Shown one piece after another: positions 48,827-51,385 of a DNA stretch of 64,000 nt. The translations under genes were made by a program, and so were the position numbers. The notes below the pieces were generated by a model that ran no database searches, was not told the DNA's origin, and saw nothing but the letters and a program-made list of their open reading frames with translations. The stretch comes from a virus (Duplodnaviria > Heunggongvirae > Uroviricota > Caudoviricetes): positions 1 to 64,000 of IMG/VR virus record IMGVR_UViG_3300029516_000004; one strand, given 5' to 3'. Each line of letters starts with the position of its first letter. Positions within the stretch are counted from its first letter, which is position 1.

Positions 48827-49528
48827 TTATTCTGATTCTCGCTCAAAAAATGAGCTGATAAGGGGAAGCCAATCCTCTGACACTTCGCGAGGTCGCGGTT
48901 TGCCGTGGAAAAAGATTATTCGGCAGTCTTTTGGTAATGCCCCATTCCCCCTGGAGTAACGCGCGCTCGCATATTTTGAACCAGGTTCCACAACATCGGC
49001 CTTGTAACTTACAAACCATCCTGGATACAGATCCTGAAATGCTGGTGTATCATCGCCCATAACCTTTCGTAAGAACCCCTGGTCCCCCCAGCACTCAGTA
49101 GTGACACAACGAGAAATCCAACCTTCCGGATCTTGCCAGAATGAACTCCAGATATGCGCTTTAACACTATTTGGTATCCACAGGGCACCGCTGCCACGAT
49201 ATTGTGGATGGTAAAAATCCCTAAGCATGGTGAAGCTGGTTGGTGGATGCTCTAGGATTGGGCGTATATCACCGGCAATAACCGTGTCCAAATCCAGATA
49301 GAACAGATCATCGGTTATATCCGGTCGGAACAACTCGATTTTCGCCCACCAGCCACGGCACTTTTGCCACTGGTTGATCAATGGGACAACTTTGACGCCA
49401 GGTACATGTAAACGCTTCAGGTCTGTCAGGCAAATAATTTCATAGCCTTTTGGCAGTTGATTAACCAGCCACTGCACATCGGAAGCGTTATAGTCACCAC
49501 CAGAGCGAAAAACTAAAGCAATCTTCAT
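48827..49528 (-). CDS. Hypothetical protein (possible nucleotide-sugar transferase-like)
   Basis: 233 aa ORF translationally coupled to the phosphatase gene; DLD motif; function unassigned. Confidence 0.55.
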
Positions 49529-50217
49529 GCTGCACCATCACCTTTCACTTTCATCAATGTCAGGTTTCCGCAAAATACGGCACCAGTGTCGATATACTGC
49601 TGATTCCAGAATGTCTTCGGGCTTTTCACCGGAGTGTGACCAAAGATAAAACGATCTGCGCCCGAAATTTCGCCACCAATATCATCCATCGAATCACTGA
49701 TACGCTCGCGCGCCCAGACAACGTTGAAAAGCGGCACCTCCTTACCGAATTGGTATTCATTATCCGGATAGTCGGCATGGGCTATAACGATAGTTTCTTG
49801 CCCGGTGTTCAACTCAATGATATAGGGCAGACGCTTTACCAGCTCCACCAGCGCCCAGGCTAATATTTCCTGATCAGTGTCCAGCATGAAGAACCATTGT
49901 CCGCCATTCATTAGCCAGTTATTCACGTTGCCATCTGGACTTAACGCATCAATCATCAGCCGCTCATGGTTCCCCATCACTGCCCTGAACCAGGGCATCT
50001 GCAATAGTTCCAGACATTCGACATTTTCAGTACCGCGATCGATAAGGTCGCCGACCGATATCAGTAAATCCTGCGCCGGGTCAAAATCCACACGATGGAG
50101 TTCGGACATCAGTCTGGTGTAACAACCATGCAGATCACCAACAACCCAGATATTCCTGTATTTGGTACCGTCGATACGGTGATAAATTGTTGGTGCCATC
50201 ATGTATTCTTCAGCCAT
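49525..50217 (-). CDS. Ser/Thr phosphoprotein phosphatase (PPP family, lambda-PPase-like)
   Basis: GDLHG, GDLIDRG, GNHE metallophosphatase motifs. Confidence 0.85.
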
Positions 50218-50825
50218 TCTTTAAGAGTCATCTGCGGAATACCTCCCATTTTCCCGCATGAAACAACGTCAATCTGTTCACGCGCAGACTGGAATAACAA
50301 AGGCAGGTGACTTAGATTTTTTGGCGTGCCGCCGGAGTGAACGCGTGGTTCTTGCGTAGCGTCAACGCCCACCAGGGCGACATGTTTGAATCCGATATGG
50401 AAAGCCAGGTTCAGAGCACCATATGCACTATTGCCGCTGGCAATTTCATTCTCATCTTCGCAAAGTCCGAAATGTGCGGACCAGCGCCACGCCCACCACT
50501 CGGGAGAATTCGTATTTTTTGGCTCCATGCCACGTTCAGCCACACGACGGAAGCACAGAACGCCGTCTCTGACTTCACGTTCTTTAACATCGGGTAGTGC
50601 CATGCAATAACAAACACCACGGCGACGGCGGCCACGACCAACGCGCCGCATATTGTCTGGCGATGGATCAAGTGTGAAAAAATAAGAAGCGCGGTTCAGC
50701 CAGTCGATGGCCCCATTGACCGCTATAATCGGCACTCCGCGCGGCGCAACAAAGTTTGCGGCGCTTGGGCCACTGCCGACGATAATAACGCGATCACTGC
50801 CTCTAAATTTATTCTTGGGAAACAT
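50199..50825 (-). CDS. Rossmann-like protein (VGSGPS...IIAVN family), paralog A
   Basis: Shares [34 protein letters not shown] blocks with paralog B. Confidence 0.55.
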
Positions 50826-51385
50826 TGAATTGCACTGCTCCTACTTGCATTCAAAATATGTAAATCTGCGTGTTTTTTGCGGGTATCCAAGAACTGCTGT
50901 TGCCATTTTGAAATAGACACCTGCGTTGGATTCCGTAGGGCTTGAGGGTGCGCACCATGCCAATGAAGGCCGTTTTGCAGAGAACAGTCATAGCCGACTA
51001 ATACCACTACTTCAGCCCCTGATTCAGCAGCCAGACTGATAGCCTGCGCGCCGCTATTTACCCCTTCCGCCGGTCCACAATATCGCCTGTACTCCAACGA
51101 AAATGATTTCGCCGCCGCTAGGTTGGCTGTCACTTTGCGGAATCTCCCTCCCGGTATGGTGGAGCCGTATTGCTTCCACCATGACAAATCACCGGCGTAT
51201 AAGGCATAAATGTCATCGAACATCTGCCAGGAATTGTTAACCGCGATGATTGAACAGCCAGTTTTTTCTATAGCAGCACAGTCCTCACGAGTGAGTGACG
51301 GACCGCTACCGACACAAAAAACAGTCCTAGTCGCCCTGGGTGGTATGTTCATTCTCAGCTGCAAATTCAGCCTCCAGGCGAGCAT
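50723..51385 (-). CDS. Rossmann-like protein, paralog B
   Basis: VFCVGSGPS, IIAVNNS, SGAQAISLA, VLVGYD; 3' end overlaps paralog A start by about 100 nt. Confidence 0.55.
   Translation of the reverse strand: MLAWRLNLQLRMNIPPRATRTVFCVGSGPSLTREDCAAIEKTGCSIIAVNNSWQMFDDIYALYAGDLSWWKQYGSTIPGGRFRKVTANLAAAKSFSLEYRRYCGPAEGVNSGAQAISLAAESGAEVVVLVGYDCSLQNGLHWHGAHPQALRNPTQVSISKWQQQFLDTRKKHADLHILNASRSSAIQCFPRINLEAVIALLSSAVAQAPQTLLRRAECRL

Follow-up and report, generated by a model that had tools for sequence, protein, structure and literature searches.

The window analyzed here is a stretch of 64,000 nucleotides (nt) from a virus of the class Caudoviricetes (positions 1 to 64,000 of IMG/VR record IMGVR_UViG_3300029516_000004), and we examined a cluster of four minus-strand genes located at 48827-51385. 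The initial annotation, which was made from the sequence alone, described these genes as encoding an unknown transferase-like protein, a PPP-family phosphatase and two overlapping Rossmann-like paralogs, and it suggested a comparison with the pmgN-pmgR/ppp region of phage P1. All four open reading frames (ORFs) were confirmed at these coordinates. Over 6 kb around the cluster the nucleotide identity to phage P1 records is 98.3-98.7%, and the window represents a phage-plasmid of the P1 type with ~98% identity to P1. The cluster consists of P1 pmgO (50723..51385, 220 amino acids (aa)), pmgP (50199..50825, 208 aa), ppp (49525..50217, 230 aa) and pmgQ (48827..49528, 233 aa), and the layout of coding sequences, their order, their overlaps and the C1 operator are identical to those in the P1 GenBank record. 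As discussed below, pmgO is predicted to encode a DUF115/MptE-like (Maf/GT42-like) putative transferase, pmgP a second putative transferase of the DUF115/MptE-like type and paralog of the first, ppp a lambda-type PPP-family Ser/Thr phosphatase, and pmgQ a GT8-like glycosyltransferase of the GT-A fold (retaining type). The gene names originate from the P1 annotation by Lobocka et al. 2004, and the equivalents in phage P7 are hdmB, hdmC, ppp and hdmD. P1 is a workhorse phage in which these four genes have been labelled as having a "putative morphogenetic function" since 2004.

The cluster belongs to an operon controlled by the C1 repressor. The first gene of this operon is pmgN (51327..51482, minus strand), a 51-aa acidic ORF with a GTG start that is present in the P1 annotation, belongs to PHROG 2350 and overlaps the start of pmgO; a tblastn search yielded no match to pmgN in the P1-like locus from Pantoea (L089). 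Upstream of pmgN is the C1 repressor operator Oppp (Op83; 51526..51542, plus strand). Its coordinates were carried over from the P1 annotation (P1-annotated locus position 8027-8043, offset +43499), and its sequence was read in the window. A promoter scan placed a promoter-like site near Oppp, at 51574-51546 on the minus strand. At the other end, a strong intrinsic-terminator-like hairpin (47215..47243, minus strand) with an 11-bp stem and a T-run lies directly past pmgS and is likely the end of the pmgN...pmgS transcription unit. Within the cluster, pmgO and pmgP overlap by 103 nt (50723..50825), with pmgP in the -1 frame, followed by overlaps of 19 nt between pmgP and ppp and 4 nt between ppp and pmgQ. 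The start of pmgO is ambiguous: residues 1-12 are unconserved and modelled with low confidence, and a start at the second in-frame ATG, which encodes M12 (51352), would cut the overlap of pmgN and pmgO from 59 to 26 nt. The ppp gene may start at its sixth codon, the ATG of which overlaps the pmgP stop as ATGA, as is typical of coupled genes; this ATG lies 15 nt past the annotated start. Similarity to lambda phosphatase seems to begin only at approximately residue 8 of annotated Ppp.

The two overlapping genes had been proposed to encode paralogs with common VGSGPS, IIAVN, SG..A..LA and LVG.D blocks. These blocks are present in the sequence of both proteins: VGSGPS, IIAVN and LVG(Y/V)D are common to PmgO and PmgP, and the remaining block reads NSG..AI.LA in PmgO. 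Pairwise similarity in BLASTP is weak (E 0.003, covering the N-terminal 36 residues). Profiles of the two families, however, built from alignments of database homologs and compared with hhalign, align over 163 columns with a probability of 97.9% and an E of 5.8e-13; the fused protein P0051, which otherwise dominated the alignment, was excluded. Additionally, each protein cross-matches the PHROG family of the other, and the order of motifs is the same in both families: SGPS loop, AVN, (G/L)D, NS(G/A)..A..LA and G(Y/V)D. The conserved domain of PmgO extends over residues ~20-198, while its first ~12 and last ~20 residues are unconserved. The PmgO family carries an invariant D-C-S...H-W-H-G-x-H cluster (H141, H143 and H146 are invariant in the family alignment), which is absent from the PmgP family. 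PmgP is the best-conserved member of the pmgO-pmgP-pmgQ cassette, with 50-60% identity across proteobacterial phages, and its GSGPS loop is invariant or nearly so in the family alignment. Judging from these sequence comparisons, PmgO and PmgP are ancient, diverged paralogs and not the result of a recent duplication.

The initial annotation estimated the overlap of the paralogs at about 100 nt and named a wrong start call as a possible cause. The overlap of 103 nt is also annotated in the P1 GenBank record (pmgO 79592-80254, pmgP 80152-80778). The ATG at 50825 is the sole ATG, GTG or TTG upstream of the PmgP GSGPS loop, and a Shine-Dalgarno-like AGGAG is located 12 nt upstream of it; because no other start is possible before this conserved loop, an artefact of start calling is ruled out. 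In the P1, Pantoea, Citrobacter and Microbulbifer loci, the pmgP start codon (GTG in Microbulbifer) occupies the -1 frame of one and the same conserved codon pair of pmgO, which encodes Cys-Phe, and the lengths of the overlap in these four lineages are 103, 49, 94 and 133 nt, respectively. The Pseudomonas genes overlap by 11 nt, and one phage carries both genes as a fusion. Since PmgO after approximately residue 200 is unconserved even among its P1-like relatives (proteins of 197-205 aa), most of the overlap is incidental read-through to the next stop. Gene callers often dodge the overlap by shortening pmgP to 176-183 aa, and the nucleotide-binding loop is then lost. Comparison of these loci thus indicates that the overlap is a real and ancient arrangement, in which pmgP is predicted to initiate independently inside pmgO.

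The same region contains an A_AAT_TTA heptamer (50804-50810) in the pmgO frame, just past the pmgP ATG, and a programmed -1 frameshift at this site would yield a PmgO-PmgP fusion resembling the natural one of another phage. The heptamer is a perfect X_XXY_YYZ sequence in P1, pmgP occupies the -1 frame of pmgO in all four lineages with longer overlaps, and a fused O-P protein exists in one locus (L003). However, the Pantoea, Citrobacter and Microbulbifer overlaps have no heptamer at the corresponding position, and by a rough estimate a chance heptamer is expected in ~13% of 34-codon overlaps. The downstream RNA is not more structured than shuffled sequences (z +0.41; 131 of 200 shuffles fold as well), and pmgP has its own conserved ATG or GTG together with the Shine-Dalgarno-like sequence. 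We therefore rejected the frameshift, which we consider extremely improbable, on the grounds of the unconserved heptamer and the lack of downstream structure.

We compared the predicted folds of the paralogs with those of known proteins, and the Rossmann-like fold of Maf, MptE and Cst-I was also found for PmgO and PmgP. The two proteins do not map to unrelated folds, in agreement with the earlier description of both as Rossmann-like. The top structural match of PmgO is the Maf glycosyltransferase, with 163 residues aligned to the 632-residue chain 5mu5, and sialyltransferases of families GT42 and GT29 are also among its matches. A fold search of the BFVD viral library returned only uncharacterized phage proteins with the same fold. 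The PmgO profile had no significant match among PDB sequences (E 0.4-1.5, or none), so that only the fold comparison is informative here, and the PDB profile searches likewise gave no significant similarity to characterized Cst-I/II that would place the proteins in GT42 by sequence. The PHROG name "alpha-2,3-sialyltransferase" on the PmgO/PmgP side is an annotation label only. Many family members have precomputed matches to the Pfam family MptE-like/DUF115 (PF01973), and the fused homolog P0051 passes the cut-off of this family with 44.6 bits. Another protein matching Pfam MptE-like is E. coli WaaZ (E 6.9e-7), the enzyme adding the third 3-deoxy-D-manno-oct-2-ulosonic acid (Kdo) to the lipopolysaccharide (LPS) core. 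A WaaZ_KDO_III match on P0051 is faint and precomputed; the family is absent from the Pfam set that we scanned. WaaZ also provides a precedent for an enzyme of the DUF115 type in a host that is not known to have any CMP-sugar other than CMP-Kdo, the form of Kdo activated with cytidine monophosphate (CMP).

The "unknown transferase-like protein" is PmgQ, and its identity can now be narrowed to a GT8-like glycosyltransferase. Its AlphaFold2 model has a predicted local distance difference test (pLDDT) score of 94 and shows a GT-A fold, and the D79-L-D81 motif (DxD) is invariant in 26 of 26 aligned sequences. Searches of the PDB with the PmgQ family profile placed GT8 proteins first, with matches to AgtA (6mw5, E 1.5e-6) and 5gvv (E 0.0036) and with GlyE and glycogenin among the matches. 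Foldseek likewise ranked GT8 proteins highest and retrieved AgtA, glycogenin, GlyE and LgtC at a probability of 1.0 and template modeling (TM) scores of 0.5-0.6. PmgQ belongs to PHROG 1962. Profile and model together support the prediction that PmgQ is a GT8-like GT-A glycosyltransferase with a DxD motif.

In order to place the cluster in a wider context, we searched 1.84 billion representative proteins and obtained 506 PmgP-family clusters (50% identity, E<=1e-3). Diverse loci were taken from contigs representing one genome per species; a scan of viral contigs gave 80 near-identical copies of P1 and no diversity. The three genes recur together in changing arrangements. The order O-P-Q is found in a Citrobacter rodentium prophage, which has no ppp, and in a Pseudomonas prophage, while P-Q occurs in a prophage of Ochrobactrum and P-methyltransferase-Q-O in one of Alcanivorax, and a metagenomic phage encodes a fused O-P protein followed by Q. 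Fused proteins comprise O-P (P0051), P-Q (P0220, P0290), Q-P (P0311), Q-P-methyltransferase (P0269) and methyltransferase-P (P0307). The fact that PmgO, PmgP and PmgQ are fused and clustered in varying order indicates that they form one functional unit. The recurrent partners of the cassette are methyltransferases (Methyltransf_23, FkbM-type and Methyltransf_24), a Sulfotransfer_2 protein and another nucleotide-sugar transferase, which are the usual toolkit for assembly and tailoring of glycans. In view of this company we consider it probable that pmgO, pmgP and pmgQ constitute a glycan-building cassette. No KdsB- or NeuA-like CMP-sugar synthetase was found in 77 loci (607 kb); therefore, any CMP-sugar donor must be derived from the host. 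In L005 (6561-7403) and, as homologs, in ~20 loci, the PmgO homolog is followed by a protein of 280 aa that matches no Pfam family (N-terminus MHGLGDNIYQRAF...). A Methyltransf_23 enzyme nearly always comes next, and this arrangement constitutes an alternative cassette to the version with PmgP and PmgQ.

The fourth gene of the cluster has a different history. Ppp matches Pfam Metallophos with 60.1 bits (cut-off 21.5) and PHROG 246 (NinI-like) with an E of 2.9e-113, it carries the GDLHG, GDLIDRG and GNHE motifs of the PPP family, and the P1 record gives it 64% identity to lambda PP; its scores are below the NCBIfam PrpA/PrpB equivalog cut-offs. The earlier assignment to the PPP family is thus borne out, and by sequence Ppp is a lambda-type PPP-family Ser/Thr phosphatase. 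P1-like elements are the only ones in which the gene separates pmgP from pmgQ; it is missing from all non-P1 cassettes examined, and is present without the transferases in the related phage D6. Because it is absent from the other cassettes and stands alone in D6, we regard ppp as an insertion and not as a member of the pathway; it appears to be an independently acquired lambda-type protein phosphatase.

This bears on the proposal of the initial annotation that the cluster, together with the glycosyltransferase-like gene at 57319, could represent a nucleotide- or sugar-modification pathway acting on DNA or virions. The sugar-transfer part fits the enzymes found, and a virion target is favored by gene order in other phages (see below); the membership of ppp did not stand, as the gene is absent from non-P1 cassettes. 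Modification of phage DNA or nucleotides, for instance glycosylation of a base with Ppp removing a phosphate, would draw on a known phenomenon, since phage glycosyltransferases that act on phage DNA are well established, and on the position of a phosphatase gene in the middle of the P1 cluster. However, the cassette is not consistently accompanied by ppp, and no base-hydroxymethylase, kinase or other DNA-modification gene was recognized beside the cassette in the loci examined, where the recognized neighbors are sugar-tailoring genes or capsid, connector, lysis and terminase genes. To our knowledge P1 DNA does not carry sugar modifications. We regard action on DNA as very unlikely. A link with the gene at 57319-58317 found no support either. 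This gene, P1 dbn, is located downstream of ban and encodes a 332-aa protein with a sub-threshold GT1/GT4-type match in its C-terminal half (24.5 versus 26.4 bits), its PHROG family has no known function, and it was never found near the cassette in other loci.

The genomic neighborhoods of the cassette suggest where it acts. It occurs in late operons of many prophages of proteobacteria, most often flanked by capsid and head-tail connector genes. We classed 54 diverse loci by genes recognized within ~4 kb of the cassette. The cassette is located inside the head/neck module in 23 of the 54 loci, in the order terminase, portal, ClpP protease, HK97-type capsid, cassette, gp6 connector, head-completion protein, gp10 and tail tube. 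Structural genes were recognized on one side only in 12 loci; in nine more the cassette comes after antiterminator Q and the lysis genes (ahead of terminase where this was called), and the context of 10 loci was unclassified. Recognized virion-structural genes thus lie on at least one side of 35 of 54 cassettes. The cassette genes are co-oriented with their structural neighbors and often abut or overlap them. HK97-like prophages encode a family of small proteins (~80-115 aa) whose genes separate the capsid gene from the cassette (L131:3831-4145, L128:3846-4091, L119:3855-4094 and six other loci). Their N-terminal domain is conserved, as is a Ser/Thr-rich motif (SSASPAAQASPQTT); the tail is basic, and no Pfam family matches. 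This small capsid-adjacent protein is a candidate acceptor or decoration protein.

Taken together, these data lead us to the following model. PmgQ would add a hexose from a host sugar activated with uridine diphosphate (UDP), and PmgO and PmgP would add a CMP-activated ulosonic acid. As no CMP-sugar synthetase gene accompanies the cassettes, CMP-Kdo is the most probable donor, Kdo being, so far as is known, the one CMP-sugar available in all Gram-negative hosts. These reactions would build a short glycan or an alternating polymer, and the acceptor would be made late in infection. Since elsewhere the cassette sits between capsid and head-tail connector genes or between lysis and terminase genes, a virion protein is the likeliest acceptor, an assignment that we make tentatively and hold at somewhat less than an even chance. 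Our best reading of pmgO-pmgP-pmgQ as a whole is a mobile, host-donor-dependent glycan-building cassette that acts on a virion protein, and we consider the chances of this reading to be about even. Its most specific form, in which the enzymes of P1 and of several hundred prophage families of Gram-negative bacteria would use host CMP-Kdo and UDP-hexose to place a Kdo-type glycan on a protein of the capsid or neck, is unlikely.

Several observations weigh against this reading. The matches of PmgO and PmgP to PF01973 (23.4 and 20.9 bits) are below the gathering cut-off of 34.6, and no Pfam family, Glyco_transf_8 included, recognizes PmgQ at E<=0.1, which is why we term this protein GT8-like and not a certified GT8 enzyme. 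Direct homology of PmgO and PmgP to WaaZ was considered and set aside, as it is weak (hhalign probability 8-14%) and the link exists only via the shared superfamily. The paper on the P1 virion proteome mentions glycosylation 0 times, P1 virions are not known to carry a glycan, and we found no paper in the literature characterizing pmgO, pmgP or pmgQ. In P1 itself the cassette lies outside the head module, behind a C1-controlled sigma-70 promoter. Single knockouts of pmg and upf genes, with the exception of pmgA, B, C, G and R, caused no defect in plaquing or anti-restriction (PMC9024508). CRISPR interference (CRISPRi) knockdown of pmgO, pmgP, ppp and pmgQ scored these genes as non-essential, and knockouts of all four are listed as non-essential too (PMC10695390). 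The function of the cassette is therefore dispensable for plaque formation. Finally, glycosyltransferase chemistry of PmgO and PmgP is unproven because the DUF115 fold is also common to pyrophosphokinases (MptE, thiamin pyrophosphokinase). On this basis PmgO and PmgP could instead be ATP-dependent pyrophosphokinases or kinases whose substrate is a small molecule or a hydroxymethyl group and whose product is used by PmgQ. However, the structural matches are to Maf, at the top, and to GT42 and GT29 sialyltransferases, the PHROG and database names indicate, as a label, a sialyltransferase, and the fusion or clustering partners, which include a GT8 enzyme as well as sugar methyltransferases and a sulfotransferase, form a context of glycan assembly. 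We consider the kinase alternative to be decidedly improbable.

The main rival is that the cassette remodels the envelope of the host, with WaaZ-like PmgO and PmgP and a PmgQ similar to GT8 enzymes of the LPS core altering that core in the course of lytic growth. P1 uses the LPS core as its receptor, and masked receptors on the infected cell and on debris could lead to superinfection exclusion or reduce the loss of progeny. WaaZ belongs to the same MptE-like superfamily, the lipooligosaccharide (LOS) enzyme LgtC is among the structural matches of PmgQ, and the LPS outer-core enzymes WaaO and WaaJ are GT8 proteins. The operon is under C1 control and could be switched on early after induction. 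However, in other phages the cassette is mostly embedded in, and coupled to, head/neck operons, and not found in lysogenic-conversion or early positions. The best matches of PmgQ (AgtA, glycogenin and GlyE) act on protein-linked glycans and not on LPS, the best match of PmgO is the protein glycosyltransferase Maf, and late expression would probably leave little time to renew the LPS of the outer membrane. Therefore, we consider action on the envelope to be rather unlikely and prefer a virion protein as the target.

Other genes in the vicinity are of interest in their own right. The pmgM gene (51549-52127) has a sub-threshold VRR-NUC match (20.9 versus 23.8 bits), and RefSeq already names PmgM a VRR-NUC protein. 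CRISPRi knockdown of pmgN lowered plating ~70-fold and the gene was scored as essential, while its knockout is reported as non-essential (PMC10695390). On the other side of the operon is pap (46684-47190), whose product, the "acid phosphatase" of P1, is similar to polynucleotide kinase-phosphatase in the phosphatase domain of the latter (PF25109, E 3e-11); Pap is named a 3'-phosphatase/5'-polynucleotide kinase in one P1 record. It is adjoined by a complete type I restriction-modification locus (39339-46419), located where P1 has pmgT/U/V. This locus encodes hsdM (39339-40901), hsdS (40898-42115), a 396-aa AAA_13 ATPase (42117-43307) and hsdR with an EcoR124-type C-terminus (43273-46419). Its layout and the 396-aa size resemble those of the prr locus, which comprises EcoprrI with the PrrC anticodon nuclease, and the ATPase is a candidate PrrC. 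Pap is worth noting beside a possible anticodon-nuclease locus, and enzymes of the Pnkp type repair cleaved tRNA.

The genes of the cassette have already been catalogued, and what is new here is a specific, testable hypothesis for a widespread phage cassette. If virions are glycosylated in this way, this would bear on phage stability, on immune recognition in phage therapy and on "hypothetical" genes in the structural modules of prophages. A Kdo-type virion glycan would be, as far as we know, the first virion-glycosylation system in Gram-negative phages, and it would be found in a textbook phage. If LPS is the target, the cassette would represent a receptor-masking function of the lytic phase.

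The element and its proteins can be compared with several known systems. The window differs from P1 by the hsd/prr-like restriction locus in place of pmgT/U/V and otherwise shows no substantive difference. Ppp has all the PPP motifs in common with lambda protein phosphatase and NinI, but is located within a glycosyltransferase cassette, and this in P1-like phages only. PmgO and PmgP have the DUF115/MptE-like fold of the Maf flagellin glycosyltransferases; Maf proteins, however, are ~630 aa long and have N- and C-terminal flanking domains, whereas PmgO and PmgP are single domains of ~200 aa without flanking domains and thus lack the multi-domain architecture of Maf. With the GT42 sialyltransferases Cst-I and Cst-II they have the fold in common, while the sequence similarity is not significant. 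WaaZ of E. coli is a member of the same superfamily, but is encoded on the chromosome and acts on LPS. PmgQ resembles the GT8 enzymes AgtA, glycogenin, GlyE and LgtC in its GT-A fold, in its DxD motif and, at the level of profiles, in sequence; it is shorter (233 aa) and has conserved WW-K, GDQ, SYK and FHG-P-P motifs of its own. The closest parallel for the proposed function comes from mycobacteriophages, in which virion glycosylation by phage glycosyltransferases has been documented (Freeman et al. 2023, as cited in PMC11256854). According to PMC11256854, Che8 and its relatives use phage glycosyltransferases and host donors to build a capsid glycan, while the glycan of the P1 family is hypothetical. 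The hosts in our case are Gram-negative, and the position of the genes differs as well: those of the mycobacteriophages are located near the 3' end of the genome, whereas the cassette described here is found in head/neck or lysis-terminase operons.

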